A DNA stretch of 64,000 nucleotides, taken from the NCBI GenBank assembly GCA_050084515.1, contig CM114271.1, positions 38,874,001-38,938,000 of the forward strand, in the 5' to 3' direction. The position numbers were made by a program, and so were the translations under genes. How positions within the stretch are numbered: position 1 is the stretch's first letter; every line of letters begins with the position of its first letter. Below are positions 14,001-52,867 of this stretch, in pieces. The notes under the pieces are model-generated. The model made no database searches. It worked only from the letters and a program-made list of their open reading frames with translations, and was not told the DNA's origin. The stretch is from Blasia pusilla (Eukaryota).

Positions 14001-14046
14001 ATCTCAGACAATGAAGGGTTACCAAAGGTTTAGGTCTAAACAAGGA

Positions 14047-15269: not shown

Positions 15270-15560
15270 CATACCTGGAGTCCTGACTCCGAGTCTGGAG
15301 TTCGAGCAACTTTGGAAGTTCGCGCATTCGGGGAATGGACCCCCTGCAGTGGCAGCAGCAAGCCCTCGGAGTCTCGGACGATCTGGGAGTCTGCACGCTG
15401 GAGTCTGGACTGTGGAGTTCGGGCAACTTCGGAAGATCGCGCCTTCGGGATTCGGGGAATGGAGCCTCTGCAGCGGCAGCAACAAGCCCTCGGAGTCTCG
15501 GACGAGTGACGAGTCGGACGCAGGGTCTGGGAGTCTCGGACCTCGGCCACCCGACTCACC
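15270..15560. repeat. GC-rich internal/subterminal repeats of hAT element 1
   Basis: TTCGGGGAATGGA...CTGCAG...GCAGCA.CAAGCCCTCGGAGTCTCGGACGA occurs twice (~15328 and ~15451); GGAGTC recurs many times. Confidence 0.7.
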
Positions 15561-22615: not shown

Positions 22616-25600
22616 CTTCCTCCCCACATGAAGTAAGTAACTACTTGCAAGTACATTCCTTTATTCCAAAATCTCCACCTCCTTTAGAATTAAACATGAT
22701 TGACTCACCACCCATAGGAACCCCCTTCCTTGAATTATAGAGTAGAGGGTAGAACCCTTCAAAAGTTCTAAAACAATAAAAGAGTTAATGAAGTGGAGTA
22801 CCACACGTTACGGACGTGTCAAACTTATTAGGGACTCTTAATGGTCGTGCATGGGAGAGCAATGGTCTCTCTAGATGATAGTAGTCACGACTGTAGATAG
22901 AATGGGAAAGCCACATTTGCTTGTAGTTGGTCCCTACGACAACAACTGTGAGATCCGATGCCATTTTTTTGAGAGTTAAAAAATAGTCTCATACTTTCCG
23001 ACAAACCTGAACTTCTTAATCTATTGTGTGTACTCACTTGAGTCACTAGTGCCAAGCTTGGAGAACTTTCTCAAAACATATATATGAACATGAAAGTTGT
23101 CGGTGCTATACATGATTCTTTGAATCTAACTCCTTATCTTCTTTCTTGATTTAATTTCTTAAAATGACACCTGTCCACTTGGTCCAAAAAGGAGGTAAAG
23201 TAACCCCTACCCCATCCTCTTGAGACGTGTAGATGAGAAAGAGGAGTTTCATGTAATAGGAAGAATTTGAACGTGTCCATCCCGTCCAAAACGAACTCTC
23301 CGGACAAATACAGGCCACGTATGTAAGACTCTAAACCGGGAGTTCTAAAGTTTGAAAGCATCCAAAACAAACATCTGCAGACTGCGATAATGCGTACTTC
23401 TGGAAAGAGGATGGAAGAAACAGGCAGTGTCGTCTGGAATACTCCGGAAAGGAGTTGTCCTCCGCGCCATCTTTCCCGGCCACGGACATATTCTGGGGGT
23501 ACCAAATGAACCAGACAAATTAGATGCCTATGTACACTTTGTTGGACCCCGAGTCTCGTCTCTTTTGATAACTGGGCAGAAATAAATGCTTCATATGTTG
23601 TTCGCACTCAGAAAATTTACGGGCATCAGAATCCATTTGTTCCTTAGGAAGCCGTACTCTTCAAAAGTTTTTTATTTCTCAGTGTAGATTTATGGGCATC
23701 AGAATCATTAGTCCCTTCAAGAACCGTACACTTTGTTGGACCCCGCCACTTTTCAAGGTCGGTAGTGGTCTTTGGATACTTACTCTACGATACTTTCTTC
23801 CTTCGGAAGTCTCTTTCGATAACTGGGCAGAAAAAAATGGCTTCATATGTTATTCGCACTCAGAATCCATGAGTTCCTTAGGAAACTTTTTAATTTTCCA
23901 ATTAAAATTTGTATGCAGAATCATAAGGACCGTACACTAACAAAATCATTCTTAGCCATGTCCTCATGTGTAGGAGTCCTCAAGGGCCCTCAAGTTCAGT
24001 GCACGAGGCCTCCGTTGGTCCGTCCGGCGAATGAGTGGTCGCTCTGGGGACAGCGTGGATCGGGGAAAGGCAAATGAGCAGCAGCTGAAAAAGCCGTGGA
24101 CATAATGGGAGGGCCTGGATGATTGTGGAAGTCGCTTTGTGAGCAGCTCAGCAGCGGTGGGGGTGAATGAGAAGTGAGGTTTTAGGGAGGAATTATGGTC
24201 GGCCTTGCACCCCAATCTCGCAGCCAAGGATGCGCGGCGGCATCTTGCACGCCCGACATGAATGTCGAGATCCGGCGGAGGTCGCAGGACGCGCGAGACT
24301 TTCGATTCGGTCAGGACGAAGGCGGCCGCATATCGGACGGGATACCTTCATCGCATGCATGTCGAGGCCCAAGCGAACCGAATGCGAAGCGTAACTCCGA
24401 CTAATCCTGCCCCAGAAATTCAACAGGCTGGACTCTGGAAATCGAAAAGAGAAAAGCGTGAAGTAATCGTCCACGCTTTTCTCGTTGTGCATGCGAGGAT
24501 CTCTTCAGATCTACCAACTGCTGAATCTAGCTCTGGCCTGTGTAGAGATTCTCGGATTAACCGGTGGCAGTGAGATTAGGGATTTCATTCAATCATGCGT
24601 CTGTTCGACACATAATTCCGCAGTTTCTCAACATCCGGTTCTTTTGTCGTTGATATAATTTCATGTCTCAGATCTTCAGGAGTCCACTTTCTTTTTCCTC
24701 TCGCGGAATGCGACATTGAAGCTTCTTACGGACTCTCGTTCTTCCACTTCTTTTTCTTTAAACTCACAGGCCCTTCCCGGGTTTCGTCAACACTTCTGAG
24801 AATCTGAGGTTTGCTCTACAAGGCCGTCACGTGTTCACTTCCACAAACGCCCTCTACTCTATCATATCATCTCATCCAAACAGGACACGGAATTCTGGGC
24901 CGATTTTGATGCATCTTAATGCAACTGTCGCGGCTTGGTCACAGAGAGTGAGTACCACGTTACCATAATGGCAACTAAATCCTCCTGTAAGAGGCTTTTT
25001 GAACATTCACCTATGGACTGTTCAAGTCCACATAAAGGTGGATGTCTAATTGCTCCGGTGATTTGTAAGCAAAGTCGATGAGCCACACACCACCCGCTTC
25101 GAATTCTCGGACGCAAAATGAGGAAATGACGTATGAGATAAACTGTGAGAGAAATTCTCGTCCACGATGGGATCGACCAAAACGCAAACAGACGAGAAAG
25201 AAAGAAAGGATCAAGTGGCGAATTACAGCATGCACACAAAGCGAAAGTAATGGGGCAGAATCGAGTGATAAGAATGACTACGTATATTTCCAACATTCAG
25301 AAGGGAATCGCCATAGCTCCACGAGCTTTCCTACAAAGTTACACAGGCTTTCACCATCACCGTGTTTTCCTACCCATCCCACAGCCGACGACGAGCCATA
25401 GACTACTCCGATGGTAGCGGTACTCACCGTCATCGAAATCTAAGATACGATCTTTACATCCGATTTCGAAACACTCCAAGACCTTCTGTCTCCTCCGTCT
25501 GATCAATCAATCGATCAATCCTCCGGCGCTCAGGGATTCTACATCGACCAGTCTGCGGAGGGCAGTCGAATTTTCGGAGCTGAACGAGCGCCGCACGAGT

Positions 25601-25723
25601 GCCGGACCGGATCAGCGGCGGGTCGAGGGGTGCGTCCACTTCCGATCTCCGACCGTACAAATCTGTCTGAAATCTTGGATCGTTCGAAGCATGCAGCATG
25701 CACGCATGCATGCATGCGGGCGA

Positions 25724-28593
25724 TTATGCCTTGTGGTGCCGTTGAAGAGACGCCGGGGGAGAGGGGAAGGCGGAGAGAGGAAGGCGAGGGGTGAGGAGGA
25801 CTTCGAGTGGAATTTCTTTGTGGAGGACGAGTCCGAAGCGTTCGGAAAAGTCCACGTCCTGGGGACTCATTCCGGCCGGGAGCTTCCAGTCGAAGCACTG
25901 GAGCAGGATGGCAATCGTGTGCTGCAGTATGAGGACGGCGAAGTTCTTCCCCGGACACATTCTCCTCCCGGATCCGAAAGGGAGCAGTTCGAAATCCCTG
26001 CCGTGGACGTCGACGCTACTCGACGCGAATCTCTCGGGCCAGAAGTCGTTCGGTCTTTCCCAAACCCTTGGATCTCTGCCGATGCCGTAAGCGTTGACGA
26101 AAACCATGCTCTCTGCCGGAAGGAAGTACCCATCGACCTCGCAGTCTGCCATCGAAAAATGCGGCACCATCACGGGGGCAGCGGGATGGAGCCGCAAGAC
26201 TTCCCGCACGATGGCGCGCATGTAATTCAGCTTAGGGACGTCCGATTCCTCCACCAATCGCTCCCGCCCCACCACTGCATCTATCTCCTCTTGAGCCTTT
26301 TCCAGCGCGTCGGGCCTCCTCAGTAGCTCCGCCATCGCCCACTCCAATGTCGCGGACGTAGTATCCGTTCCCGCGAGGAGAATGTCCTGTACAAAATCGC
26401 CCATCTCAGGAATTAGATCGCACGCCGTGACCGGTGCTAATCTGCGAGGAGGTGCCGGCTACCTACCTACCTTTCGCAGCAATCCATCAAATCAGATCAC
26501 GGCCAAGCTTGTAGAAGCGGGCTTCCATGTTCACATTTGCAATTTGAGCCCTGTTATGGTTTCTCTAAAAGCATCGACTAGTTCAAACGATCTGAGCACT
26601 TCTCGGATTAGATTTGTCGCATGCTGAAAGCTCCGAGTGCGATTCCATCTCACGACGTCCCAAGTCGCAACAGCGCTGCCGGCTTTCTACCAATTCACAG
26701 CCCGAGAACAGAGTGATCCGCCACGTTTTTGAAGAGCCTATTGCTCTCAGCAGGGTCGGAGATACGCCTCCGTCCTAGCTGGGGCTACAAATCGAACCCG
26801 GAAACCCCAGTTTCCATGCGATTCAAGGTCAATCAACTTCCAGCGAAATATGGTCCGCTCAGACCAAATTTCGCTGGAAGTTGCGGACCATATGACCCCA
26901 GGATCTTCCTGCCGTCCATCGATGGACTTCTGCCCCGTTCCGCCTTCACAGAGACTCTGAGCGGGCAATCAGTAGTGCACCTGATTTTCTTGATCGATCA
27001 TGAGCAAGGACTATTCGAATGATCATGACTCGAGTCTGCCAACAAGGACCCGTGCTCCTTGATTGTCTGATTTGTTCGAGACACAAGCCAGAGCATTTTT
27101 CCACGCTAGCAATTGCGATCATTCCCAAACAGAGTCAAAGAATTCAACAGCGTATGAAGTGGACTTACAAATAGCACCCCTTTCATCTCAGTTTCAGTTA
27201 GAACTCTCCCACTTTCGTCTCCCTGAGTCGATAATGTCAGCAGCACATCGACCAGATCCCTCAAGTTGTTCTTGTCTAAGGTCTGGCGATGCTCGTCGAG
27301 AATGGCATCGAAGAATTTGTGAATTTTGCCGAAGGACACTTTCATAGCCTTTCTACTCCCAAACAGATCGAAAGGCTTCAAAATAGGTATGAAGTCTCCC
27401 ATATCCAGTTGACCCAAACCCTCAAAACACTCCCTCAGGGTCTCCTCAAATTCGAACGATTCTTTAGAAATGTCTGCCTCGTCTCCAAAGTAGTTCTCGC
27501 TGGCCATCATGCGGGTCAAATTGTTTGCGATGAAAACAGAAAACTTGACGTTCATCGCCACTTCTTTTCCCCCTCGAGATCCTTCCAGTAAGTCCAGCAG
27601 TAAAGACGCCGTCTGCTCCCTTCTCATGACCTGTGAGGTCCAACTACTCCCAAGTCAGAATGCAACATATACGCACTCAAACCCACCGAGCATTCGTGAG
27701 CAGTTCCCCCATCTCTGCTCATCCTCAGAGTTCAGGTTCTAATTTACAACTGGACTCAGAAGCGATCCGGAACAGTGAGAACAACGTCTCGATCTGACCT
27801 CCGAGGGGTGGAAAATACAGTCGTTTCAGACCACAAATTCACCCCTGCGGATAGGACTCAGTTCTCCAATCCCCCGTCTAGCGAGGCCTGGATCTGGCCA
27901 GAAAGTTCTTCAACAAAATCGTTGAGATTTTGGGGTTTCCACATCGAGAACGTTCCCTTCAACTCCAAATGGCGGAAGGTCGATTGATTGATCGATTTCG
28001 GCATGACAACAGCAGATTTGGAGGAGTAAAAGGTCTACATTTTTGGTCTAACCATCAACCAGATCAAAGAATATTTACACGGAAATTTCAGAATTCTTGG
28101 AAATTCTGATTCCGACATAGTGAGTCATCACTGGTGGACGAGCAGGAATCCACACCTGGAAATCTTCAAGCCGCTTCGGGTTGAGGAGTTCCGTCATGTA
28201 CAGCTTCTTCAGGTACCGTGAGTCAACTCCGTAAGGCGACAACCCCATCAGCCGACTCTGGATATATTTCAGCTTCACACCATTTAGACGCGACGCAAAG
28301 GTGAGATCATGAGTCTTGAGAATCAATTCCGCTAGTTTTGGTGATGAAATTATCACGGCAGGAATCGCACCCATGCGCAAGGACGTGATCGGCCCGTACT
28401 TCTGCGAGAGCTCCATGAACAAAATGTGCGGCTTTTGGTCTCCGGCCAGGAGCGGAAGATTTCCCAACACAGGCCACGGCTTCGGGCCCGGAGGATATCG
28501 TCGGCGCCTCTTCGAACTCGCCAACTTGCCGAAGATGAGCAGCACCATCACTGCCACAGCGATCCCCGTGATCAATTCCCAACTCGCTTCCAT
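25724..28593 (-). CDS. Cytochrome P450, CYP71 clan (A-type); 3 exons 28593-28156, 27630-27169, 26386-25724; ~520 aa
   Basis: N-terminal TM anchor, PPGPKPWP, AGTDT (I-helix), EVLR, PERF and PFGSGRRMCPG (heme). GT-AG phase-0 introns join the exons into an uninterrupted frame. Confidence 0.95.
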
Positions 28594-30339
28594 CTTCGCC
28601 CGCTCGCACCAATCCTGTACCCTCGGATTTCCTACCTATATGAATGATATCGCCTCGGAACCTCTGAAACCAATCCGACCTGGTCGCCGCAGACTCGATA
28701 GATCCTGAGACACGACTCCCGTGCACACATCCGCAGATCCGGTGAGGTATCGCGCCACCGAGAGTTCTTTTGCTGGGATTTGCGAATCAGCCTCGATCGA
28801 TCGCGGCCCAAGATCTCCGAATGCGCACCGAACTAGCCGCATGGCTGGACCTTTCCACACCTCATGAAAAAGAAGACAGACGGAACTGGCACTTTTGCAG
28901 ACTCCATGAATTTGTGCACGTCCAGTTGTTCCGGGCAGTTGGTTGCACGACCTCTTCTCTCCCGGCCGATAGCCGGCAGATGTCTGCGTCTGGGAATTCG
29001 TCCCCTTTGTATCTCCTCGGTCCTCCACCGGGGGACTTATCTCCTCGGTCCTCCACGGGGGACTCGCTAATGAGTCCTCTCGAGTCGTGACTGGTTCAAG
29101 TTTTGAACAACCGTCACCGTCGATCGGAATGGAACGCCGTAGAAAGTCCGTCGACGGAGCGGGTAATCGCTACTGGACGTCGTGTCGTGTTCGTTTGCAA
29201 GGGCACTATGCACAGAGTCACCCGAGTGCGTCCGATTAATTATGAGCTAATCCTACATCGTTTTAGCATGTCAACGACTGTCGGTTGGGGAGTCGCGTAG
29301 CGATCATGCTGTCCTGTCAGGGGCGCAGTCTCCGTCTCCCTCCTCTCCGTGTTGGCGGGGCCCGTAAGGTGTCCGTCTCATGTGCTGGATCTTACGGAGT
29401 GAGCTCACGGCTGGACACGTGTCAATGGCCCACGGGTTAAGCGTTCGTTCCTCAATGCTGCGGGAGAAAGAACTTGTTTCCAATTCGGGAATAGTTCCAC
29501 TACGACTAATGGCCCAAAAGTCATTTAATTTAAATGAATATCTCATTTCCACCTATTCGTGAATTTCGGGAGGAAGGGGTCACACTTGGGACAGCATATT
29601 TCCTTACGTCAGGACATGCGAAACGTGCGAAAGAGGACTACATGCACTGGTGTAACATTCCACAAAATGACGTGGCTATTTTAAGTGTGAGGAGAATGAA
29701 TTTCCATACTATGGCACCATGGAAGAATCCATATTCTACGTCATAGGTAACAATATAAAGCAAATTCTCAGGAGCTAAAAGGTACCTCCTCGCACCCCCA
29801 AGACACACAACTAGTTGACTAATTCTCAAATCGAATAAGACAACATGGGATGGGAGAAGGATACCCTTGAATCAAACCATTTTCCACATAAAAAGTCTTC
29901 CGAGATATTTGCAGGCACACCTTTACCTTCGATCCAACTCCTGACTTATGAGAAAAATAATATAAGAGTATGTTACTACCTTAGACCACTTTATTTGTGC
30001 GTATTATTATTTGTCATTTTCGTGATTATGAATACTAATTACGAGTCGAATAATGGAATAATGGAAGGAGCCGTCATTACCTTAGACAGATTCATTTCTA
30101 AGTATTATATTTTCATTTGCAAAATGAAAAATCATGCAAGAGTGTGTCACCGCCTAACACTTCTTCATTTCTATTTATCATATTGTCAATTACATCATGG
30201 AAAACTTTGCAAGAGTGTTTCACAACCTAAGACCTCTTCATTTGCATGCATTGTATTGTCATTTGCATGAGGAAAATTAATGCGAGACTCTCATAATTTT
30301 ATTCCCACCCGATTATGACTTCATGGAGTAATAAGAACT

Positions 30340-32371: not shown

Positions 32372-33786
32372 AATAAGTTCCCTGCTAACTAAGTTGACAC
32401 ATATACTCATGTTTCACAAAAATAGTACTAGTTGTGACTCTTTTTCCTTATGTTACAAAGATTTCAATCACGACTAAGTAAACATGTCTAGCCATGCTGC
32501 CAAACACTAACTACCGATGAGATTAAAGATGAATTTCTTGAGTTGTCTCAAACTTAAGTCCCAAATATCCCTACTAATGGGTTTGACATGCCTGCCATCA
32601 TAAAGTACGATGTCCACATGCATACCTTTTTACTTGATGGGTTTGGCCAATTCTTTGTAAATCTTGTCAATTCTATTTAGAGATTCTCAAGTGCAATTTG
32701 AAAGTCTAGGAAGAATTTAATTGTAAATTTTTTTAATTTTTTCTTTAAATTTAAAAATATTCATTTTTAGAACATATAAAGAATTGTTCTTCGAACATGT
32801 TGAACACTTATATTATTATTATTAAGTTTTAAAAATTAAAAATTTTCTATTGGGATCATATCATCATGTGTATATTTCAAACGCCAATATTAGTAATGGT
32901 ATGTATTTTCTCATTTAAGTTCATTTAAAATTTATATGATGGGAACTTAATAAACTTAATTTGTGTACATTGCATGGACCATTGAATCTAAATTATTCCA
33001 TGAATACAGCAGTTTTTTGTTTATTGTTGCAGTATTTTTTAAGATTAACACTTTTCCCTTATCTAAATTCTCTTTTTTTAATTAATTTTTAATTCCATTA
33101 TTTTTCATGCCTTGCATGGGTAATTAAAACACAATCTATAATAATTTGAGCTTTATAAGTTAGGGAATTTTTAATTCTTTGGTCTATTTTTAACTTTCAA
33201 AAATAATTGTGCAAAATTTTATCTTTAAGAATTCCAAAAAATTGATCCTTTTCTTTTTTCATTAAAATATGAAAAAATGGAGAAATTATTAACAAGGATT
33301 TCTTATTGAACAAAACAATGAAAGTGTTAAATTTTCAATAAGAGAGAGATTTAGGGAAAGATGTAGTAAACTTTGAATAGGGAAGGGGAAGGGGAAAATG
33401 GATAATTTTCAAGAAGGGAGGGATAGTGGATTCCTAAGGGAAAATATTTTAATGTTTCCTTTTCAATAAAATAAGAAAATACATAGTAAAAGTATTTCCC
33501 ACCACCCTGCCCAACGCTTTATCCAAAGGGGTGAAGACCCTCTTTGGAGATTTAGGGAGGGCCCATCAATCCCTACCCATTCTTAAGGGTAGAATTTGAC
33601 TCCATCTCCCCATATTTATCCCCAACCTTTCATGGGGAAATGAGATAGACAATATAGGTAGGGTCAAATCCTCTCCATTCCTTTAGGGAGTAAAGTTATG
33701 AACCAGTATGCATCCCTCTTTAGGGTTTTGAGTTTTATAACAAACTTTAGAACAAATTCTTATTCGGAATAACATCGGGAGTAACA

Positions 33787-33945
33787 CGGTGCTTGGTGGG
33801 TCGGAGAACACGAATCCGAGTAGGAAGCACGAAGGTTGAGAGAACGGCGAAGGTGAAATGGGAAGAAACCCGGTGCTTGGAGGGTTGGAGAACACAAATC
33901 CGAGTAGAAAGCACGAAGGTTCGGAGAACGGCGAACAGGTTAAAA
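33787..33945. repeat. ~84-bp tandem duplication just left of the Gypsy insertion
   Basis: CGGTGCTTGG...GGAGAACAC.AATCCGAGTAG.AAGCACGAAGGTT...GAGAACGGCGAA occurs twice. Confidence 0.8.
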
Positions 33946-33997
33946 AGAAGTCTTGAATGGGAACTATTCTATTATGTATTAATGGGAACACGGACAC

Positions 33998-34477
33998 TGT
34001 CACATCTCAGTAGCCAATAGGCAGAGATCTATCGTGGATAGGGCGTAGGAGCCAATGGACTATCTTGAGTGAAACTTTGTCCCACGGTGTCGGATGAGGT
34101 TGAGGATAGGTCCGTTGTATCAGGAACATCGTTTTTGACAACTTTCCTGTTGAGGTCTTTCATAGTCGGGTGACTTGTTGACCAGGTCACTCGCCCCTGG
34201 TAACTTGTACGCGCAGGTTACCAGGAGGATTAGCTATTTTTCGGGGAAGAGTCTTTTGGCTCTTCCTAAGCTTATCTAAGGGAGGAATATGGCTTTCCCA
34301 AGCCATCTTTCTCAGGTTGGGCCATTGGAGCACCTCTCTTATATGTGTGTGGATAGGACTAGGGTGCTAGCATCCGGATTCCTTGATACAACAGGATGGA
34401 CGAGGCTCGATATGCCGATGTAGATTGAGGAGTGGAGTTTTAGGTTGGGTGTGCCATTTTTACTACTCTTTATTTTT
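33998..34477 (+). repeat. Terminal repeat A1 (5' LTR-like)
   Basis: Aligns end to end with 42978-43456. Confidence 0.92.
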
Positions 34478-36179
34478 ACATGAGAAAGATATCAAGGGGC
34501 TGGTAGGAATTCATTGTTTGCAGGCAGGCAAGCGAGTTGCCTCGGTGGGGAGCCCCTAGAGATGTTGGTTGGCGTTTCATTGGTCATTTTTCTATTCGGA
34601 AGGCCGTGGGCGAAAGCGCTGTTTTTTCTTCTCAGATTTTTCTCGTGTAGGTTAACGAGGGACAACAACAGAGTGGGAGTCACGCAGGAGCGCTCGGGTG
34701 CAATGCAAAGGGTTGGAGCGTTGGAGAATAGGCACAACGGGAGTGTAGAGAGAAAACGTTGAGAGTTTGTAGCGGCTAGGGAGGGGGCCCGCATAGGGTC
34801 GCACGTGCCCCCCCCCCCCCACCTCTTTTTTCGGATGTGGTTGGCGCCATGGTCGGCGCCAACATCGAAATCGTCGTGGTCGGTGCCTCCCACGCAACAT
34901 GGTAACCAAGTAGGGCGTACGTGGTAGCAGTGAAGGATATGTGGTAGAACTATGGGCAACGTGGTAGACGGGATGACATGGTTGAGTTCAGACGGAGTTG
35001 AGTAAGGTTACGGGGGCGTTTGGGGATGGGCGGAGAGGTTTGCGCGACGTGATGTTTTTTTTCGAGCATGGTTAGGAGTTGCGAGGGTTGTGCTGGGGAC
35101 ACACACGCCGATGCTGGCGGGAGGTTTGACGAGTGACCGAGGAGATGGTTGTGCTACGGACGTTGTCATATCACGTGGAGGAGTGAGTGTTGACGGTGTA
35201 GTAGGTTGGAGGGCATGATTAGGTTACCCATTCGAGTCCCTTTTTCCCACACTTATCTTACGTGATTGAGAGTACTAGGTACCAGATAGTAGCTGGTGCT
35301 AGGTGGGTGCAGTGATGGTGATGAGTGTAGACTCTTTTCATGTCTAGCATGTTGGTGGATATATGGCGGTTGTCAAGTAGGGGTCGCATGTATGACCCGA
35401 GCGTGTCGGTAGGTTAGGTGAGTTAGTGGGAGACTCATGGTGAGCTTGAGTGTTGGGTGTGCGTGAGGTTAGGTGTGTCATCACGGGATTGATGTTAGCA
35501 CAGGTGAGCTAGTGAGGAGTGTGGGAGACTCTCGGTGAGTTTGAGTGCTTGAGCGGATGAGACAGGGTTGTCATCACGGCGTTCTTCCAGGGTTCGGAAG
35601 AACTGGGTAGTGCGAGCAGTAGTAGTGGTGTGACACGGAGTGGAGTGAGATACCGAGGGGTTACGAGTGAGGAGCTACCGCGATATCCATCTGTGGTTGG
35701 ATCTTCATCACTAGACACCGGGTCTGGTGACGAGATCGCAGACGGAGGCAGTATCACTTGGCAAGAGATGGATGACATGGGCCATCGGGGCATGCATCGT
35801 TTCTCGGGTGCAGCGGGCACCATCGACTTAGATGATTTATCCATGAGTTCAACACGTGGTGCGACTTCCAGGAGATACGGACCCGACACGGTCCAACCCT
35901 TTCATGGCATGGAAGGGGTTGTTCCATCACTTGGAGGGTCCTCCGATGGATGACTACATGGAGTTTCGATCACTATATTCAGTAGAGATCGATGCCTAGA
36001 GGATGTATTGGGCTCCAGGGTATGTGTTCACTAGTGGTCACGAGGCATATGATGGGATCATGAGAGGAGAAAGATCCACACCATCAGCCCACAGACTAGA
36101 TGGAGAGGAGGGCAGTGAGACAGGCGATGTGGCAAAGACCTCTGGTGATAGAGGTCCACCAAGCTTTAGTCCCAAAGTG

Positions 36180-36900
36180 GAGTTCTTCCGACAGTTCGGG
36201 AACCAGGGCGTACGCACTGACAACTTGAAGAGTCTATAGGATTTTCAGCGACGATCGGGTGAGAGTCTGAGAGAGGCATTCACGCGAATGAGGAGGTTGA
36301 TCATTGCTACGTATGGAGCGACTGAGGCGCAGTCACTCTAGTATTGGTACGGGGTTCTGGACCGAGAACTACGGAGGAGAGTCCCGGATGCAGTGCTGAT
36401 TCACACAGCGAAGCCCACATTGAAGGTGGTCTTTGAGTTGTCTGAGCGTGTTAAGCTCAACATGAGTGAAGAGCAGGTAGTGACCGCTGGATTTTCTTGA
36501 GAGTCGACGGGCAAAAGCGATGGTGATCCCACAAGTGCCACAGCGAGCACCAGTACCACGGGAGCGGGCCAGTGTGCCCAGAGAGCAGGTTGGGTACCGT
36601 GAGCCTATGAGGCAACGAATCCTATCTACATATGGTGCCCAGCAGGGACCGATGTTGTCTTGTTGGAGGTGTGGAAGGGCCCATAGGCAGAGAGACTGCA
36701 CACAGCATGGGAGAGGACCACGAGCGCCTCCGATTGCTCAGGAGCCATAGAGGATGGCCCCACCATAATACTAGTGTGACCATTGCCACAGATATGGTCA
36801 CACGAGGGATAGATGTTTTGACCTTCGTCGAGAGGTACGTCCGGAGGTAGGTCGAGGGCCTCGGGGCGGTCATCCTGGAGGAGGTCGGGGAGTTCTTACT
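36180..36900 (+). pseudogene. gag: gag region with two zinc knuckles
   Basis: FQRRSGESLREAFTRMRRL (capsid MHR-like), CWRCGRAHRQRDC, and in a shifted frame CDHCHRYGHTRDRC. Confidence 0.75.
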
Positions 36901-37659
36901 AGACGTGGTGGTAGAGGACCACCACCAGCAAGAAGAGATGGAGCAGGAGCACCAGAGCTGGCACTTCTCTCATGCATCGATTAGTTGGAACAAAGGATTG
37001 CTGCCACGACAATGATGCAGCTCAGGGAAGGCGCAGAGCCACGAGCAGCTAGTGTGGCTCCAGCTTCTACCTCTTACCCTGACGTGGGTGAGGATCTCGC
37101 TAGTATGGGGTTTATGTGTAGTGCAGCTCAGGTTGAGACGGCTGCAGTGGTAACTCGGGGTGCTGCAAGAGGCACCCAGCCATCGAGAGGTGGAGTTGAG
37201 ATTGACCCATCGGAGGGGACCGATGGACGGTAGGCTAGGGTTTCACAGTCATTCACATTGTCGGAGACACTACACACACCATCGATGGTGCCTCAACAAC
37301 CAGCGGTGCCTACAGCTCAAGCAGGTACGTTGACGTCACAAGGAGTTGGAGTGACAACTCCTATGTCGGCTCAAGTGGAATCAATGTCGACCATAGTGTT
37401 GGAAGTGGGCACCAGAGTGAGTCAAACTCTGCTATTTTCCGCCATAGAGTTGGCGACGTTGGGAGTTAGACCAGTTGAGGTGTTCCGGTTGGCCGTCATG
37501 TTGTGTGAGCGTGGCGAGGTGACTGCTTCTTGTTCAGAGGTAGTTGAGGAGGTGGTGGACTTGCCCTAAGAGCCGATGCTCGAGACGTCCCCCACAGAGT
37601 CATGGCATGCAGCGGCGGCGAAGTTGATAGATATGCCAGCTCGACCGGCCATAGAGCGA

Positions 37660-38110
37660 GCAGTGGTGACACCTGGAGTAATATTACTGAATAATCAAGC
37701 TGGAGTATTTTGCTTGGTTAGTCCGATGGGAACAGAATATCACCCGCATCGCGTCCTTCTTGATTCCAGAGCGCAGCCCTTGATGTTAGGGAAGGCGGCA
37801 TGTTTAGCGTTGGGATACGGAAGGCCGACATTGAGCCTTGTCCCTTCCAGATACAGACCTTGATTGGGGGCGTATCACCCACGCAGTATATGACTTGACA
37901 AGAGATAGTTGTTAGAGTCCAACCAGAGCATGCGATGGATAGTGCTATGGTGCGCACACGTGAAATTATGACACCAGCTGAGTCGTACGATGTATTGGTG
38001 GGAAATACAATGTTATATCCCCAAGGATTCATCCTTGACTTCTGGGAGGAGACCGTTGCTTATCGACCAGTGTGGCGGTCAGATGACGGGCGGATGAGTC
38101 AGTTACCCGT
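37660..38110 (+). pseudogene. Retroviral-type aspartic protease, decayed
   Basis: RVLLDSRAQ (DSGA-equivalent) and downstream YDVLVGN (flap-distal ILG-type motif). Confidence 0.7.
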
Positions 38111-38474
38111 GCAATTTGCGGGACGAGGTGGTCGATCACGAGACGAGTCTGTGACCACGTTGGCAGCTTTCACATGTAGTGTTAGCTGGCCAGGAGAGTT
38201 GTTGGAGGGGAATGCACATGCGGAGGATGTGCCAGTAGCAGATAGTCCCATGGAGAGACAGGCCATGGCGGGTATCTCTTCCCATGTTGGCGAGACCTCT
38301 TCACCATTGTGGGGTATGACTCGAAAGCTACAGAGGAGTGTATACAACCTCATGAGGTAGGCGTGGAGTCATGCCTTTATCCCGGAGCAGCAAGATTCAG
38401 GTGGCGATCAAGACCCTGGAGTAGAGACGTTGATCCCATTGGATACCACACCCGTTGTGTGGAGTGTCTAGAGG

Positions 38475-39420
38475 AAGGTGTTAGGGTGTTAGATCTTTTC
38501 AAAGGGATTAGCACAGGATTGGTTGCGGTAATGCAGGCAGGGATACGGGTGCATTAGTACCTTTATGTGGAGAGAGATGAGACCGCGCGGCGAGTATCAT
38601 TACGTCACGTAGCGAGATTGGTCTAGAGGTATCCTGAGTTGTTTCCGATATCTGCAGTATGGGAATATCATCATACACTACCCACCGACATCTCTTTGGT
38701 GGGGGCGTAGGATCTAGATAGAGTTGGCACCATTCATTTGGTGATTTCTGGATGGCCATGTCATGGTCATTCATCACCTGGCCGAGGGTTTAGATTGCAG
38801 GATCCGAGATCAGGGATGTTTTGGGAGATGCTGCGAGTAGTACGACACTTGCAAGAGAGTCACACATCTTCTCCGGCGTACATTTTGGAGAATGTGTTGT
38901 TGTTGGGAGACACTTGTGCACGTTTGATGACGAGTGTGCATCAGGTGACCTACTGTGTTGCTAGATGCAGCGAGAGTTGGATCATGCACCCATCGTCCAC
39001 GACTATGGTGGATGAACCTAATACCATCAGAGGTACTGAGTCAAGCATACGATGGAGTCTAGAGAGCACCACATCTCACAGTGGATGCTATTTTGGGCTC
39101 ACGGCATCGATCTCAGGTAGTGACATGGGATGATAGACCACCGTTGGCGGTGGCCAATAGAATCGGGGAGTTGACGGCACCCTTACCTACGTTGGTGAGC
39201 TTCCCAACATCCCATGCCTTTCGTCAAGGAGGGCTAGGCATGATTTGGGATGAGGTGACCTGAGCATTAGAGGAGCCTATAGAAGATGAGCGCGAGCGCG
39301 CCATGGGGTTTGCTACATGTACTACGGTGGTGCCAAGTATGACAGAGGCATCCGGGAGATAGATGTTGGGGCACGCAATGGACCTCAACTGTCTCACATG
39401 GATAGTCAGCCTAGGTATGG
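38475..39420 (+). pseudogene. DNMT3-like C5 cytosine DNA methyltransferase domain within pol
   Basis: Motifs in linear order across frame breaks: VRVLDLFKGI (I), YVE (II), VISGWPCHGHS (IV), DPRSGMFWE, YILENV (VI), HRPRLWWMNL (VIII), ERERAMGF (IX), LGHAMD (X). Confidence 0.9.
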
Positions 39421-39713
39421 CTGAGCAGAGACGGATGTGAGTGTCATCCATGCCGTCACGTCCACGAGTTGGACCATTGCCTACAGGGTCTCTACAGGCA
39501 TTGGCTGGGGGCGGGACGAGGAGAGATAGGCACCCATGGACTTCTTGGAACGTCGTTCGAGCGGAGAGTGAGAAGGCGGCCAGAGTAGCACATGTTCATT
39601 TTTTGGATGTGGAGCATGGTGTAGGAGGTCAGAGTGGAGTGGCTATTGCAGAGGTGGCTAGGGTTGCTACATAGCAACCAAAGCTGGAGATTGCATCCTC
39701 TCCGAGTGAGGTC

Positions 39714-41108
39714 ATGATGGAGACTTACGAGCCTATGATACGTCTCAAGTTGATAGGAGGAGAGCGACGGCGAGTTCATAGGTTTCTGAGAAGGCATGTT
39801 AGTTGTTTTGCCTTCAGTATGAGAGACTTGGGTACGCTGAAGGGTCCCGGGGTACGGATTGAGTTGGCTAGTGATACGCCGATCTTTTGTCGATCCTACT
39901 GGTATTCTAATATGGAGCAAGCCTTGATTCAGAGTAGGAGTCAGGACTTGTTGGAGGCAGGACTTGTGGAGTTATCACATGGGGAGTATGCATCTGCCAC
40001 AGTCATGCCGGCGAAGAAGGATATGTATGGCAATTGGACGGATAGGCGGATGTGTGGAGATTACCGTCCTATCAACCGACAGACGAGGTCAGATTGGCTC
40101 GCCATGCCTACACCTGAGGAGATCTTTGATGCGGTAGGGCATGCAAAGATCTTCAATACTTTAGATCTCCGTGTTGGCTATCATCAGCTTCCTATCAGGT
40201 TGGAGGACAAGAAGAAGACAGCATTATGGGGGATGGATCGGTTTGGGAGAGATTGCTTGTATCAATGGCGATTCTTACCATTTGGGTTGAAGAATGCGCC
40301 CGCGGAGTTTCAGAGAGTGATGGATAGGATTCTGGCTGGCTTGGAGTTTGTACGATGTTACATAGATGATATTCTTATCTTCAGTTCCACGGTTGAGCAA
40401 CATGAGCGACACTTGGAAGAGGTGTTTCGGCGATTGCAGTTACATGGACTTGAGTTACATCCAGGCAAGTGCACATTCTTTTAGGAGCAGATTGAGTACT
40501 TGGGACACACCATATACCCGAGTGGATTAGGCGTTCAGCACACAAAGGTAGAGGCTCTTGGGAAGATTCCACGCCTTACAGGTGTGATTCGAGTCCGAGC
40601 ATTTCTTGGATTGGCGAGCTTCTATCGACGGTATGTCAAGGGTTTTAGTACGATCGCAAAGTCTTTGACCTTTTTGACAAGACTTGATCAGGTTTGGTTG
40701 TGGGGAGATAATCAAGAGCAAGCATTTCAGGAGCTCAAGGACAGGTTGACGTCCTCACCCATTTTACAGAGACCGGTTAGGAGTCGCCCATTCCAATTAC
40801 ATACGGATTGGAGCGTGTTGGGTCTAGGAGCAGTGCTTACTCAGAGAGATGACGAGGAAAGGGAGTTCATTGTGGCTTACGCAAGCCGATCGAACAACAT
40901 TGCAGAGGCAAAGTATAGCTCTTACAAGGGAGAGTGCTTGGCTGTAGTGTGGGTTGTGGCACATTTCAGGTGCTATTTATTCGGCAACCCTTTCACACTT
41001 ATCACTGATCATCAGCCGTTGAGGTGGTTGATGAAGTCTGACAAGCTTACGGGAAAGCTTGCCAGGTGGGCTCTATTACTACAAGAATATGAGTTTGGTG
41101 GTTCATAG
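39714..41108 (+). pseudogene. pol: Reverse transcriptase and RNase H
   Basis: RMCGDYRPIN, LDLRVGYHQL, LPFGLKNAP, YIDD; single in-frame TAG at 40482-40484; then LHTDWS, VAYASR, ECLAVVW and TDHQPL. Confidence 0.96.
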
Positions 41109-41499
41109 GCCAGGTCGGGTGAACCAAGATGCGGATGGGTTGGTCATAACCCATGTCCGAGTCAGAGAGACGACACATGAGCTTGATGGCACGGAGAGAG
41201 TGATGAGGAGATGGTGCCCGGTTGGCATGCATCTGCCTATCTTTGTTGGTTGACTATGGTAGGTCAGCCATAGGTGATGACTGTAGTGGTGGGGTTGGAT
41301 GATGAATCTTTGGATCCGTAGATCAGTGAGGAGGCGACAGGTGGTCATGATATCCATGACGACGTGGAGGTTATGGAGTTCTTGCGCATTGGCGTCATAG
41401 CGAGCATAGTGAGTGTTAGGGAGCGGGATCGGATCCTACAGAGAGCCACGAGGTTCAGGTGGGAGGGGACTCACATTTTGTGGGTATGGGGAGATGGTA

Positions 41500-42560
41500 G
41501 GATACGAGTGGTACCTCATCCTTCCGAGCAAGCACGTGTAGTGCGACATGCCCATGAGGAGTTGGGACATTTTAGAGTAAAGCGTACTTACACCTTACTC
41601 CATGTTCAAAATTCGTGGTGCGGCATGCATACTGGGGTACAGAAATTTGTGGCCAGATGTATGGTATGTGACAAAGTGCGAGCATCTTGCAATGCTCCCA
41701 CTCCGCAATTACATCATTCGCCGATTATTTTTTTAGGTTATCGGTGGAGTTTAGACTTTGTGGGACCTTTGCCATTGATGGGGCATCATCACAGGTATGA
41801 GTTGGTCATTTCTCCAAGTGGATACAAGGCGAGTGAGTGAATAGCTTATGCGTTTCTAGATCGTGTGCTTGGTCACTTTGGTGCACCGGCGGAGGTGTTG
41901 ACTAACCAGGGTACCGAGTTCATGGGAGAGTTTCAGGCCTTGTGTGATCAGGCACTAATAGATCACCACACCACGTCCAAAGATCATCTTGAGGCGGATG
42001 GGTTGGCAGAGAGAGTAGTATAGACGGTGAAGAAAGGATTGAGCAAGTATGGCTTGCAGCGGGGATAGTTGAGGGAATGGGACCTACATTTGCCATTGTT
42101 GGCTATGGGTTATCACTTTAGTCGGCAGGCATCCTTGGCGTCATTTTCATCGTACTTTTTTCTCTTTGGGAGAGACCTAGATTTACGTGAAGCTATTCAA
42201 TATGACATGGTGCAGGTGTTAGATCTTGATGATCCAGATGTATGGGTACAAGCATGTTCTCAAAGGGCGGAGATTTTTCGTAGAGTTATGCCTATGGCCT
42301 TTGAGAACTTAGCTATTGCTGAGCATAGAGATACATTGAGGTATGCGACCATTCGTGGAGGAGGTTATTGTCCAAGTATTAGGAGGTTTCATCCTCGAGA
42401 TTATGTGTATTTACAGCAGGCGGCACCCACGACGCTAGATGTCACTACAGGGCGCATGATCCTACGTGTGCGCGAGGTATTACTGACCGGAGTTCTCATA
42501 TTGGAGGGACGGGATGGTATGTTTTGGAAGGATCGTGTGCGCAATTATGCGCCATATCAT
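41500..42560 (+). pseudogene. DDE integrase, decayed
   Basis: HHCC region HAHEELGH...CMVC; WSLDFVGP; VLTNQGTEF (D-to-N at the catalytic position); DGLAERVV. Confidence 0.9.
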
Positions 42561-42617
42561 CTTCCAAACGTAGATGGGACAGTGGATCCAAGCTTGGCAG
42601 TGGTACCTGTAGGCTTG

Positions 42618-42761
42618 AGGTGTATGTTGTGCAGATCTGCGAGGGGTGCAGCCATCATGTTGGTATGTGATGGTTGTTCTCAAGGGTGGCATATGTCATG
42701 TCTGAACCCCCCTCTTGATGTAGTTCCCACAGGACGATGGATATGTCCGAGATATGTATAG
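42618..42761 (+). other. PHD finger at the pol C-terminus
   Basis: CMLC...MLVCDGCSQGWHMSCLNPPLDVVPTGRWICPRY fits the C4HC3 pattern with the last Cys changed to Tyr. Confidence 0.9.
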
Positions 42762-42841
42762 GATAGTAGGTCATGTTAGAGAGATGAGATATTGTCTATC
42801 TGGAGTTAGGGGGATCCAACTGCCAACTAGGGGAGCGGTTC

Positions 42842-43594
42842 TGTGATGTCCATATATATATATGAGTTGATTTCTGTACATGTGTGGATCTACCCGGGTG
42901 TGGGGAAGATTGGTGTTATGTAGTGTAGATGTGACCAGCGATGTATGTTGTGTAGCGATATGGATGCACACGAGAGTTGTCACATCTGAGTAGCTGATAG
43001 GCCGAGATCTATCGTGGATAGGGCGTAGGAGCCAAAGGACTGTCTTGAGTGTAACTTTATCCCACAGTGTCAGATGAGGTTGAGGATAGGTCCATTGTGT
43101 CAGGAACGTTGTTTCTGACAACTTTCTTGTTGAGGTCTTTCACAACCGGGTGACTTGTTGACCAGGTCACCCGCCCTGGTAACTTGTGCGCGCAGGTTAC
43201 CAGGAGGATAACTATTTTTAGGAGAAGAGCCTTTTGGCTCTTCCCGACCCTATATAAGGGAGGAAGATGACTTTCCCAAGCCATCTTTCTCATGTTGGGC
43301 CGCTGGAGCACCTCTCTTGTATGTGTGTGAGATAAGACTAGGGTGCTAGTGTCCGGATTCCTTGATAGCGCAGGATGGACGAGGCTCGATATGCCAATGT
43401 AGATTGAGGAGTGGAGTTTTAGGCTGGGTGTGCCGTTTTTACTACTCTTTATTTTTGTTGTGTGATGTCCATGTATATGTATGAGTTGATTTATGTACAT
43501 GTGTGGATCTATCCGGGTGTGGGGAAGATCGGTGTTGTGTGGTGTAGATGTGACTAGCGATGTATGTTATGTAGCGATATGTATGCGCACGACA
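42842..43594 (+). repeat. 3' terminal region B1 (42842-42975), A2 (42978-43456), B2 (43461-43594)
   Basis: TGTGATGTCCAT...GATCTA.CCGGGTGTGGGGAAGAT...CACGA occurs at 42842 and 43461 on either side of A2; purine-rich AGGGGAGCGG lies just before B1. Confidence 0.92.
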
Positions 43595-44539
43595 ACACTA
43601 ACATCCGACTGTTAAAAATTGATATCCTACGATCGAGAACCTGCAAAATATCTTGCATTCTGCAAGCTCTGCGTTCGGAATTGCCTTGTTGTAGAGGCCG
43701 CAAGGAATTGCCTTGTTGTAGGGTCCGTTAAGAGTAGAGATGGAAAATGAGTTCGATGGTATAGGGAAATTAGGAAGACTAAATGACCCTTTGTTATATC
43801 TAGAAGAGAGATAGCAAATTGGGGGAGTCCTTACCCCCTTGAGAGCAACGAAGAATGGGGGAAGATGTGGAGGTTGGGCATGGAAGGGCAACAAGAAGGG
43901 TGGAATGTGGCGGGGGTCAAGGGCCGAGAGTGAGAGAAGTGGGAGGGCAAGAGGGGAAGGGGAACCAAAATTGGGAAGCAAAAAGTATGCAGAAAAAAAA
44001 ATTGTGGATCTTTATGAAATCCACATGAAAGTTGCAAGTAGCAACAACTTTATGATGAGAAACCCATGCATTCACTTTGGAAAAAACTTCAGAAAAAATT
44101 AAATCATTCAATGTTTAACAAATCTTGAAGATACAAACAAGGATACAAAATAGCCGGCCTAGTCTATTTGTATGTTCTTTGTAGAGCTTTGATGGAACTT
44201 GGATATGGAGAAAAATTCACATAGGAGAATGTGCTATCGTAATGGTTCATCACAGATATATGACTAGTCTATAAAATAGGGTATTACCTATTCTCTTCTA
44301 TACTATGAATAGAAAAAAATTTCTTCATTTTGCGTTAAGGAATAGGGATCTATTCCAAAATTGATTTATGTCATATAATAATGACTCCTTTGAAGTTTTT
44401 GTTAGAAATATTAATCTAGATGTTTCCTCATATAAGTGAGTCATTAAGATTAAAGGTGCAAGTCAAGAAGTAGAAATTAAATATCCAACATCACTCTTAA
44501 TATCCACCCTATATGGACTATTGTCTTGAACCAATGCCA

Positions 44540-50076: not shown

Positions 50077-52867
50077 CTAGTTTGTATACTTTCGCTTCCT
50101 CCGTTCTCCAGCCCCAGCTCTCGTTGTAGGTTCTGCCTTAACAGGCACAGGAGGAAGAACTGGTGCCTGTGTGACAGGAGGAGGTGGGGGTGGAGCAGGT
50201 TCTTCCGGCAGAGGCCGTGGCAGAATGTGTTTTAGTCGGTTGTTTCGATGATGTTTCCAAAAGTAGAATTGTTGTCTATGTGCCACCTCCTGTACACAAA
50301 AAAACATGTAGACATGAAATTTCTTCAGGCATCTGATTAATTCTGGTGGATCCATTTCCATCTTAAGGCAGTTTGAACCTACACAAACTACAAGCATTCA
50401 CAATGTGTTTCACCACCAGTAACCTATCTTCAAGAAACTAAATATCAATATTCCAAAATATAACATTTCAAAACCTTGTTTGCTGGGTGAGCCATAGCAC
50501 TGCGGAATTGTGGACTTTGCAGCAACTCAAGAAAGAAGAGGGCATGAGGATACCTGCGACATTCAAGGGAATAATCAGCCACAAACTGAACCAAATTGCT
50601 CAAAAACATCAACTGGAGTCGAGTCATCTCAAGTTCGTGTGCTTTTGGTTTACAAGAAAAACAATCAAAGATGGCAGTTGCTGAAAGCTGTTGCTAGTGC
50701 TTGGATGATCCAGCTTTGACAAGACTAGCGCTCAAGTTCAGTTTCAACCATACACTTGGTGATAGGACACTACACCCACATTATTTGGCAAAGCAAAAAT
50801 CCGCCCTTTTGAGATGGACAACTGAGTAATTTCATCCAACACTAAGGAAGGGGACAAGGACATCAAGCCATTCCCATACAAACATTATGGTAGGAAGGGT
50901 TTAATTCCAGTGTCTAACCTTGAACTTATGTGGCCTAAGAAGTGGTCAAGGAGAAGAAGGGGTATGCTCTCTTATGGATATCACACCGCATAAGTACCAT
51001 CTTCTAGATCTCACCCAAAAGACAGCTTTCTCTGGACCATGCTTGCTCAATTCAAGACAGGGTCCACAAAAACCTGACTGTCTCTTAACCTCAGGTCAGT
51101 AAAATCACCGGTAAGTAAGTACCTTTAGTAAGAACCTGTCTATCTCTTATACCTACTTTAAGACTACCTCAGCCAAGAGACAAGTCCAGGAACCATTGAG
51201 GATCCCAAGTATTTACCACCATTATACCGTGATTAAGGCCTGAACTAGTTTGCACTGTAAGTTTACCCACAGCCTTCATAACCTTAATCACTATACTGAA
51301 GGACATGGTGTGTTTTGCCGGGAACAGAGTGAATTGAAAAGACCTAATTTGTGCACAGAGTTTTAGTCAAGATACTACATTGATGAAATACTATGTTGAC
51401 CCTTCTGGATCCATGCCTTCACTCGCTTTCCTAGACACTACTGTCAAAGAAGCCATCGACCAGACCCATAAACTATATTTTGTGAATCTCAGACTCTCCA
51501 AGGAGCAAGCTGGTTTTCTAGGCCTAACACTGACAAATGACAAGACGGCATTCTCCATGAGAAGGACATCACCAATGAATAAGCACCCACACACACCTTG
51601 GCACCAAGAGAAATTCAGTGAAAATAGACACTTAGGGCCAACTGTGTAGTTGCCAAAACTACTGAACATCTACATACAAAAAATGTAACAAGGCCTCTAG
51701 AATGGCAATCCTTCCCAGGAAAATTTGATCTCAAGTATTCCTTCAGATCTCTTGAAGAAAGTATCATCCTCATGACCTAAAGTTCACCTAGTGCAACCAA
51801 TTTTTGGTGCAGTAGTATAACCTTCTAAATAAGAAAGTTCACTTATTTGTATGTCTCAGTTACATCTCACAGGGGAGGCAAGATCTGCCAAACAACTTCC
51901 AGTCTGTAACAATATGAATACAGCCATAACGCGCGAGTACAAAGAGCCTAGCTTCTGCCAATCTCTGTTAGAGCCAATTGCCAAAACATAAGTTAGCTCG
52001 TGAGACATGCTCACAAGGAGTTAGGTCATTTTGGAGTCAAGCGTACGTATGACTTGCTTCAGATTCAGTATTGATAGTGTGGTATGCGAACTGATGTTCC
52101 TCACGTCTCATTCAGAGCCCACGAGCTCTATGCTCTTTTGAGGTGATTTTGTTTCTTGAGTACCCTTGAGACTTGCAACAGAACGCTTTCATCCTTGCGT
52201 AATTAAAATTCCAACTATAGGATCGCTCACTGAAGTTCCAAGTCCTCTTTGTTTCAATAAAGTAAGCCACTAAATGTACATTTCAACACTGGCAGAATCG
52301 CGAGGCGAGGTGCTGCAGAAGAAAACAAGTTCGTTTTTCACTTCCAATTAGAGGCACAGGAGACAGGTTTGGTGCACACAGAATGAGTGAAGAAAACCAA
52401 GCATGAGGTGGAATCTCCCTAATCCTGGACAGCCTTCGAGATATTCCCGTGAAGAAAGAGGCAACTCACACAATAAACTTTGAATATTCAGGGCGCTGCC
52501 AGTACTGGAGGTACTTAAGGTAGCCCACAAATGCCTCATCATCAAAATAACGATTTTGCGCTAAATCTGCAAAAGCAAACAGAACGTCAGGTGTTATTCG
52601 TTTCGACTAAAATTCGTACTTGTCATGAGATCAGCCGGTGATAACCTACGTGTACGTTCTCCTGAAAATTAAGACTTAAAGCAAACTTTGCATAGAAGGA
52701 AACGGAACACAAGTATCCATATGAATGAAATGAGAGAGAGAGCACTCACAATGTATGTAAGTAGGATTGGCCAGACATTGGATAAATTCAAGCTCAAGCT
52801 CAAACCGCTGGCGACCTCCGTCAGTCTCTTTCAAACCCCCGTCCTTGACGCCTCCATCGTTCTGCAT
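50077..52867 (-). CDS. MED31: Mediator subunit 31 (SOH1); exons 52867-52750, 52566-52470, 50553-50475, 50289-50077; ~168 aa
   Basis: RFELELEFIQCLANPTYIH|YLAQNRYFDDEAFVGYLKYLQYWQRPEYSKFIV|YPHALFFLELLQSPQFRSAMAHPANK|EVAHRQQFYFW; GT-AG introns with consistent phases. Start codon and extreme C-terminus are less certain. Confidence 0.95.
52000..52100 (+). mobile_element. ~100-bp Gypsy integrase fragment in MED31 intron 2
   Basis: GTGAGACATGCTCACAAGGAGTTAGGTCATTTTGGAGTCAAGCGTACG aligns with 41541-41640. Confidence 0.75.

Follow-up and report, generated by a model that had tools for sequence, protein, structure and literature searches.

Split direct repeats on a DDE-integrase Ty3/Gypsy element with a DNMT3-like methylase: a lineage trait and a proposed replication model

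Split direct repeats, in which a repeat A1 at the 5′ end is followed beyond the coding region by B1, A2 and B2, are typical of retroelements of the Ngaro/PAT type, which carry a tyrosine recombinase. For decades, the replication of elements with such repeats has been argued from sequence models, with little experiment. A circular intermediate is the route proposed for Ngaro/PAT elements (introduction of PMC7192593). Another closely related system is KnitGypsy-Dnmt3 of Klebsormidium nitens, which has DIRS-like repeats together with Gypsy domains according to a figure legend (Fig. 4c) of de Mendoza et al. 2018 (PMC5890265). The main text of that paper gives no account of a primer-binding site (PBS), polypurine tract (PPT), target duplications or mechanism for this element, and in a literature search no other paper mentioning it was found. 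The present analysis concerns a degenerate Ty3/Gypsy element at positions 33998-43594 (+) of a 64-kb stretch of Blasia pusilla DNA (contig CM114271.1), in the order A1 - coding region - B1 - A2 - B2; the whole stretch is called the window. An initial annotation of this DNA regarded the layout as typical of Ngaro/PAT elements and not of integrase-bearing Gypsy elements. The split direct repeats are indeed of the Ngaro/PAT type, but the premise that Gypsy elements lack them is outdated, because the legend in PMC5890265 already records them there.

As far as the published description allows comparison (PMC5890265), the window element resembles KnitGypsy-Dnmt3 in its Gypsy domains, in a DNMT3-type methylase inside Pol and in the order A - coding - B - A - B. 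The two differ in their hosts, a charophyte in one case and a plant nearest to liverworts in the other, and in a PHD finger, which the window lineage has and which receives 0 mentions in the main text of PMC5890265. The layout on a Gypsy-DNMT3 element is already known, recorded once before, in that figure legend (PMC5890265); new here are a predicted self-primer like that of Tf1, a PPT conserved before B1, and TGTC...GACA termini with 4-bp duplications. With the Ngaro/PAT elements the window lineage shares the order A1 ... B1 A2 B2 and an internal B1A2 junction made of joined termini. It differs from them in having an HHCC/DDE integrase and variable 4-bp target duplications in place of a tyrosine recombinase.

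Repeat alignment confirmed the boundaries first proposed for the four repeats, all on the plus strand. A1 (33998-34477) begins with TGTCAC directly after a left 4-bp target-site duplication, ACAC (33994-33997), and is 90% identical to A2 (42978-43456) over 481 columns. B1 (42838-42975, ending ...CACGAGA) and B2 (43457-43594), whose final ...CACGACA is also the element's 3′ terminus, share 91% identity over 136 columns. The last base of A2 is joined directly to B2 with no base gained or lost, and the right duplication, ACAC (43595-43598), directly follows ...GACA at 43594. B is present twice and only at the 3′ end, as had been noticed, with no B-like sequence upstream of A1 in the window copy. 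The B1/A2 junction, ...CACGAGA-GT-TGTCAC, had been taken for an end-to-start join, and it does consist of the element 3′ end, a 2-nt spacer (GT, 42976-42977) and the element 5′ end; the spacer is part of a palindrome-like GA(G/C)A-NN-TGTC, read here as GAGA-GT-TGTC. Since A1/A2 (90%) and B1/B2 (91%) are equally diverged, both pairs date from the same event, the insertion. The repeats follow the DIRS order of Ngaro/PAT elements (A1 ... B1A2B2), and the two complete identical long terminal repeats (LTRs) of a Ty3/Gypsy element are absent: the 5′ end consists of A only and the 3′ end of B.A|B, where the dot marks the junction with a spacer and the bar the direct one.

The arrangement A1 - internal - B1.A2|B2 characterizes a lineage and is not peculiar to the window copy. 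A scan of metagenome contigs returned 80 loci, which were then compared with themselves and probed with parts of the element. A second family, distinct from the host family of the window copy, is represented by L021 and its kin. L021 has a complete A1 - internal - B1.A2|B2, L016 has the same with a truncated B2, and L014 runs from A1 to B1.A2 and then reaches the contig end. L008 and L015, which are one and the same locus, contain B.A|B, and L010 contains the A|B junction; L005 reads A - internal - B, and in L003 and L011 a single B is directly followed by flank. In two further and more distant families, each a single contig (L001 and the GC-rich L020), the order PPT - B - ..CA-NN-TGTCAC - A can be read. 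It had been conceded that ordinary full LTRs in other copies would make the window copy a private product; B preceded A1 at none of the five observable 5′ ends (window, L021, L005, L014, L016), and the layout is not a private rearrangement. No internal repeats were detected in L001, L004, L006, L007, L009, L017 and L020, the predicted position of A1 lying outside the contig for L001 and L020. The scan also returned distant Gypsy relatives, in which the LTRs form plain pairs (e.g., L022, L058, L070 and L077). A repeat pair in L039/L040 (526 bp, 72% identical) was also considered; it has no B-type arrangement and is apparently unrelated. The conserved B end gave 0 matches in viral contigs. The window copy is a decayed member of an abundant Ty3/Gypsy-type lineage of bryophyte-like hosts.

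A1 is followed by ACATGAGAAAGAT (34478-34490) and by no TGG-type tRNA site, in agreement with the initial annotation. This PBS is complementary to a site inside A and probably not to a tRNA 3′ end: it is the exact 13-nt reverse complement of ATCTTTCTCATGT in A2 (43283-43295), which lies 32 nt downstream of TATATAA (43251-43257). The equivalent site in A1, ATCTTTCTCAGGT (34305-34317), is the predicted RNA start and has one mismatch to the PBS in the decayed window copy; by this site A1 would be divided into a predicted U3 (33998-34304) and a predicted R-U5 (34305-34477). With up to 2 mismatches, ACATGAGAAAGAT has 12 matches in the window versus 3.2 expected, and 0 of 100 shuffles reached 12. 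In L021, ACTCAAAGAACT pairs with AGTTCTTTGAGT, which lies 31 nt downstream of TATAAA. The partners in L016 are ATTCGAAGAACT and AGTTCTTCGAAT; this amounts to two compensatory changes, carried by both L016 A copies. Out of 3000 internal positions, none reaches the observed length of complementarity in the window, L021 or L016, and none in the window reaches at least 10 nt. For 34305-34495, the minimum free energy (MFE) and centroid structures alike are closed by a 9-bp stem that pairs the 5′ end with the PBS, and the leader folds of the relatives have this pairing in both structures too.

Tf1/sushi elements of the Gypsy type lack a tRNA primer site and prime themselves, their PBS being complementary to the beginning of their own transcript; a prediction of this kind also exists for the Tcn1 clade of plants (Neumann et al. 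2019, PMC6317226). The window lineage would be similar, its PBS lying next to the predicted U5 and being complementary to the predicted RNA start, 31-32 nt after a TATA box, with compensatory changes. It differs in its permuted repeats, PHD finger and DNMT, compared with ordinary LTRs and a chromodomain in Tf1/sushi, and the likeness concerns the priming site. No tRNA gene was found in the 64-kb window. The self-complementarity of the PBS argues only indirectly against a tRNA primer, and the absence of a tRNA primer site is most likely explained by a predicted self-primer of the Tf1/sushi type. In L021-type A copies (e.g., L021 14762-14790), CTCAAAGAAC, which equals the primer-site core, occurs just upstream of the predicted RNA start and forms with the start site an inverted repeat, CTCAAAGAAC-AT-AGTTCTTTGAG; nothing similar occurs in the window's family.

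At the other side of the coding region, the PPT (CTAGGGGAGCG, 42827-42837) lies directly 5′ of B1, as it does in every copy read. In the relatives the motif is CTAGGGGGG[T/C]G, and motif and position are common to L021, L016, L005, L003, L011, L008, L015 and L001; L014 matches the L021 pre-B1 probe at 92.6% identity. With a PPT directly before B1 and a primer site directly after A1, reverse transcription would define the LTR as B+A. Integrated copies, on the other hand, have the termini TGTC...GACA. Target duplications of 4 bp flank all three complete copies, namely ACAC (window), CATA (L021) and TACA (L005), so that short duplications accompany TG...CA termini as in Ty3/Gypsy elements. These termini and the variable duplications point to DDE integration. 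A 2-nt recombination core of the DIRS-like kind was considered for the flanks and rejected, as it fits the window (AC...AC) and neither L021 nor L005. The target tetranucleotides often include ACA or CA (window ACAC, L021 CATA, L005 TACA, L011 TACA, L008 AACA), from which L003 (CAAT) and L010 (GGCC) differ; a weak preference for targets that resemble the ends of the element may exist.

Two kinds of junction can be distinguished. In the A2|B2 junction, the base before the primer site is joined to the base after the PPT, and this A|B junction is exact in 5/5 independent cases (window, L021, L016, L008/L015 and L010). In the internal B.A junction, two integrase ends are abutted with a variable 2-nt spacer, which is GT in the window, TC, AC, GC, GC and GC in relatives, GT in L001, GC in L020 and AC in host-family reads (joint 43594->33996). 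GACA-NN-TATC instead of TGTC is found at this junction in the most expressed host subfamily (RNA reads, 43596) and in A2 of L021 (14609); the variant may have come from a G>A change after insertion.

The integrase region (41322-42620) comprises an HHCC zinc domain (PF17921, E 1e-10 on 41322-41840) followed by a DDE core with stops. The intact relative P0006 aligns from reverse transcriptase (RT) to PHD finger (39678-42752, frame 3, 57% identity) through the stop codons in a single frame, which indicates that the integrase core region is present but dead in the window copy. The catalytic D, D are invariant in 16/16 relatives, with E kept in at least 90%. Among the four relatives scanned with Pfam (P0022, P0014, P0009 and P0006), three have rve (PF00665) and H2C2, and the sequence of the fourth, P0009, is partial and stops short of the integrase. 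No Pfam match to a tyrosine recombinase (PF00589, Phage_integrase) was obtained in 16 window open reading frame (ORF) pieces or in these four proteins. The proposal of a DDE integrase on the element is thus borne out, by Pfam for the zinc domain and by the P0006 alignment for the core, the type being the HHCC/DDE of Gypsy.

From these features a first concrete, testable replication model can be proposed for a layout of the KnitGypsy-Dnmt3 type. RNA would start at the site inside A1, and its 5′ end would fold back on the primer site and prime minus-strand DNA as in Tf1, whereas plus-strand DNA would start at the PPT. Reverse transcription would yield an ordinary linear complementary DNA (cDNA), [B.A] - internal - [B.A], whose own ends (B start and A end) would not be integrase sites. 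The ends of this cDNA would be joined as in a 2-LTR circle, creating the A|B junction. The DDE integrase would then cut one internal GACA-NN-TGTC on both strands, releasing A - internal - B.A|B and leaving CA-3′OH ends with 2-nt 5′ overhangs, and the released molecule would be inserted with a 4-bp staggered cut. The integrated form is a circular permutation of the predicted cDNA, and the proposed end-joining and internal cut would be the simplest way from one to the other. To the model as a whole, that is, self-priming, a B+A cDNA and an end-joined form opened by integrase at the internal site, we give a probability of roughly 0.55. Non-standard priming or strand transfer had been suspected from the start. 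The non-standard priming is most likely self-priming of the known Tf1/sushi type, and strand transfer is probably not the unusual step, because PBS and PPT sit where an ordinary B+A LTR needs them. The unusual step is more likely the way in which the integration ends are defined, with the LTR permuted relative to the integrase sites.

The step in which integrase opens an end-joined form has counterparts elsewhere. Bacterial insertion sequence (IS) circle junctions of the IS3/IS30 type, where a DDE enzyme cuts abutted ends in a circle, provide one analogy. Another is given by retroviral integrases, which have been reported to cut the palindromic LTR-LTR junctions of 2-LTR circles (PMC1180852, PMC1905944, PMC4372172); as those reports describe it, there also a DDE enzyme cuts abutted ends within a circle and regenerates integration-competent ends. 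In retroviruses it amounts to a side route that starts from a by-product, whereas in the model for the window lineage it would be obligatory, and the cut site would be an inherited internal part of the LTR and not the new ligation junction. The proposed circle would be topologically the same as that of Ngaro/PAT, with a DDE integrase in place of the tyrosine recombinase. In its broadest form, the proposal is of an entire DDE-integrase Gypsy lineage of streptophytes with an obligatory end-joined intermediate of the 2-LTR-circle type, opened at an inherited GACA-NN-TGTC, in which the split repeats are a permuted B+A LTR; this generalization is put forward tentatively, as somewhat doubtful. If it is true, the same logic would explain the split repeats of Ngaro/PAT, and LTR retroelements and tyrosine-recombinase retroelements would be linked by one circular intermediate and two enzymes.

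Several observations weigh against the end-joining model. No circular or end-joined molecule has been observed, and short reads are uninformative on circles (joints 43594->33996 and 43543->42923) because both junction types also occur in integrated copies. The circle has two identical B.A sites; if the other were cut, the product would be A|B.A - internal - B, a form seen at 0/5 five-prime ends, a small sample. At three of eight three-prime ends (L005, L003 and L011) a single B is followed by flank; such ends could arise by recombination of B1 with B2 or by integration of a doubly cut or 1-LTR form. End-joining by the host might give some imprecise junctions, yet all five are exact. Every examined copy is degenerate, that of the window included. 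In L014 the complementarity is 10 nt only, which is equalled by 1/3000 background positions, and its fold is no more stable than shuffles (z -0.47); of the leader folds, only that of the window clearly exceeds its shuffles in stability (z -2.47). Finally, the RNA-seq reads have no clear start at 34305/43283 and no clear end at the predicted place.

The exactness of the A|B junction in five out of five cases is what would be expected of a templated or polymerase-driven join, and reverse transcription alone might make the layout, with no ligation or circle. Following ordinary synthesis of [B.A] - internal - [B.A], or in its place, an extra template switch would add B after the right-hand A, and the left B would be removed or never made; for example, the plus strand could jump end-to-end, from the A end to the B start, so that a linear A - internal - B.A|B reaches the integrase. 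Published work on DIRS-1, which found mainly linear cDNA (PMC7192593), agrees with such a route. The A end and the B start, however, share no homology to guide the jump, and apart from an integrase cut at the internal site there is nothing to halt synthesis at the GACA of B or to take the left B away, which is already most of the end-joining model; this explanation is judged unlikely, but it is a serious competitor. A different view, which follows the suspicion of the initial annotation, is that the true LTR is A+B (TG...CA, 617 bp), as integrase sees it, and that unusual priming or strand transfer carries the 5′ B over to where the internal region ends. A2+B2 does resemble a complete LTR with TGTC...GACA inverted termini. 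Against it, the primer site follows A and not B and the PPT precedes B and not A in all families seen, and no polypurine tract precedes A2, where the sequence is CACGAGAG, so that an A+B LTR is improbable.

Two other explanations would make the layout either accidental or familiar. The window holds one full copy only, which is degenerate, as might be expected if an ordinary element with two LTRs had undergone a private deletion or recombination. The layout recurs in independent contigs of the second family, whose flanks and duplications differ, L001 and L020 have the same B.A junction, the layout is published for K. nitens (figure legend in PMC5890265), and the equal divergence of A1/A2 and B1/B2 (90% and 91%) dates both pairs from insertion; a private rearrangement is already refuted by the relatives and retains a negligible probability. 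It could also be supposed that a tyrosine recombinase of a DIRS/Ngaro-type element was overlooked in the broken ORFs, the repeat layout being that of Ngaro/PAT. This too is extremely improbable: Phage_integrase is missing from the 16 window ORF pieces and the four relatives, three of which have rve while the fourth is partial, and the 4-bp repeats at the flanks are variable (ACAC, CATA, TACA), which a fixed recombination core would not be, and differ from the junction spacers.

In the window lineage the primer site, PPT, integrase sites and target duplications are all readable from DNA and lead to testable predictions on the RNA start and on extrachromosomal DNA forms. Host reads show the family to be transcribed and very abundant, and material for testing such predictions therefore exists. 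In a whole-genome shotgun (WGS) sample of about 1/100 of a run, with likeness of at least 85%, depth is about 1000 over the internal region, and the summed depth of A1 and A2 is about twice the internal depth. From 43594/43595, 1134 + 612 WGS reads run on into unlike sequence with a consensus agreement of about 0.35; this near-absence of a consensus indicates that the 3′ terminus GACA is common to many insertions. Stranded RNA reads are almost all in one orientation, with a depth of 5-45. The first ~100 nt of B (42838-42936 and 43457-43557) are different or absent in most host-family copies: 649 WGS reads diverge before 42936 into another sequence that they have in common, and a join of 42837 to 42936 is seen in some reads. 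Conservation of B is limited to the last 40-55 nt, across families too.

The interior of the window copy is interrupted by stops and frameshifts. The apparent domain order of the element, as read in the window and its relatives, is gag - protease - DNMT3-like methylase - RT - RNase H - HHCC/DDE integrase - PHD finger. A CCHC zinc-knuckle, CWRCGRAHRQRDC (36661-36699), was recognized by eye in the translation of ORF 36484-36750, which has no Pfam match, and marks a gag-like region. A 35-nt segment overlapping this knuckle (36649-36683) is the sole match of 265 and 197 RNA reads (runs X19 and X20), which continue in either direction into a single constant sequence unlike that of the element (agreement 0.99-1.0); a highly expressed transcript from elsewhere in the host shares this segment. 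A frameshifted gag-end/protease-like region follows (37285-38390; tblastn with P0009 residues 1-361, ~40% identity in two frames, no Pfam match), homologous to the N-terminal part of Marchantia polyproteins. The frameshift-broken C5 cytosine DNA methyltransferase (38477-39404) is recognized by PF00145 (E 1e-5) and by P0009 residues 381-694 at 58-66% identity, and the nearest solved chains to the methylase part of P0009 are DNMT3A/3B (E about 2e-6). Its presence in the window and upstream of RT in relatives makes it a DNMT3 in Pol of the KnitGypsy-Dnmt3 kind.

RT (39675-40484; PF00078, E 1.4e-25) and RNase H (40485-41108; PF17917, E 7e-36) come next, and their nearest solved chains are those of Ty3 (4ol8, 7q5b). 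The C-terminal PHD finger (42621-42752; PF00628, E 1.9e-10) occupies residues 185-228 of ORF 42069-42761. Intact relatives have the order methylase - RT - RNase H - HHCC - rve - PHD. As in Ty3/Gypsy elements, integrase follows a Ty3-type RT and RNase H and is of the HHCC plus DD35E kind, the core having been read in the relatives. In the GC-rich relative L020 (4700-5665), the Pol ORF runs ~320 residues past the PHD finger. Among proteins, RT is best matched by those of the liverworts Calypogeia fissa (77%) and Marchantia polymorpha, with Sphagnum and many metagenome proteins next, and in several M. polymorpha matches the methylase is fused to RT. No Klebsormidium-named protein was among the 120 + 44 matches listed. 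A Gypsy element with its own DNMT3-like methylase and PHD finger is thus widespread in bryophyte-like hosts, and not confined to one charophyte.

The window also contains remnants of related elements, which are short and old and not full copies. The occurrence of ACATGAGAAAGAT-like sequence near 10150 and 56250, pointed out earlier, proved correct, the match being exact at 10151-10163 (+) and having 1 mismatch at 56246-56258 (-). The former lies in a segment (10097-10164, +) that matches the A end and primer site at 76%. The latter belongs to a heavily deleted minus-strand remnant (56262-54947), in which 56262-56106 matches the A end and leader and 55468-55125 matches PHD, PPT and B. A second B-like unit (55056-54947, -) is ~70% identical and ends with GCGCACGACA, with ~70 nt between the two B units; the claim that the copy at 54947 also has two B units holds only in this weak form. 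A 34-residue integrase zinc-finger fragment of a related element lies at 51997-52098 (+). Just upstream of the studied element, in AT-rich flank, two 78-nt direct repeats (33774-33935; 87% identical, spacing 84) are unrelated to A or B. Blocks of ~51% GC at 6001-8000, 14001-16000 and 24001-30000, similar to the studied element and set in a background of 30-43% GC, are probably other transposable elements.

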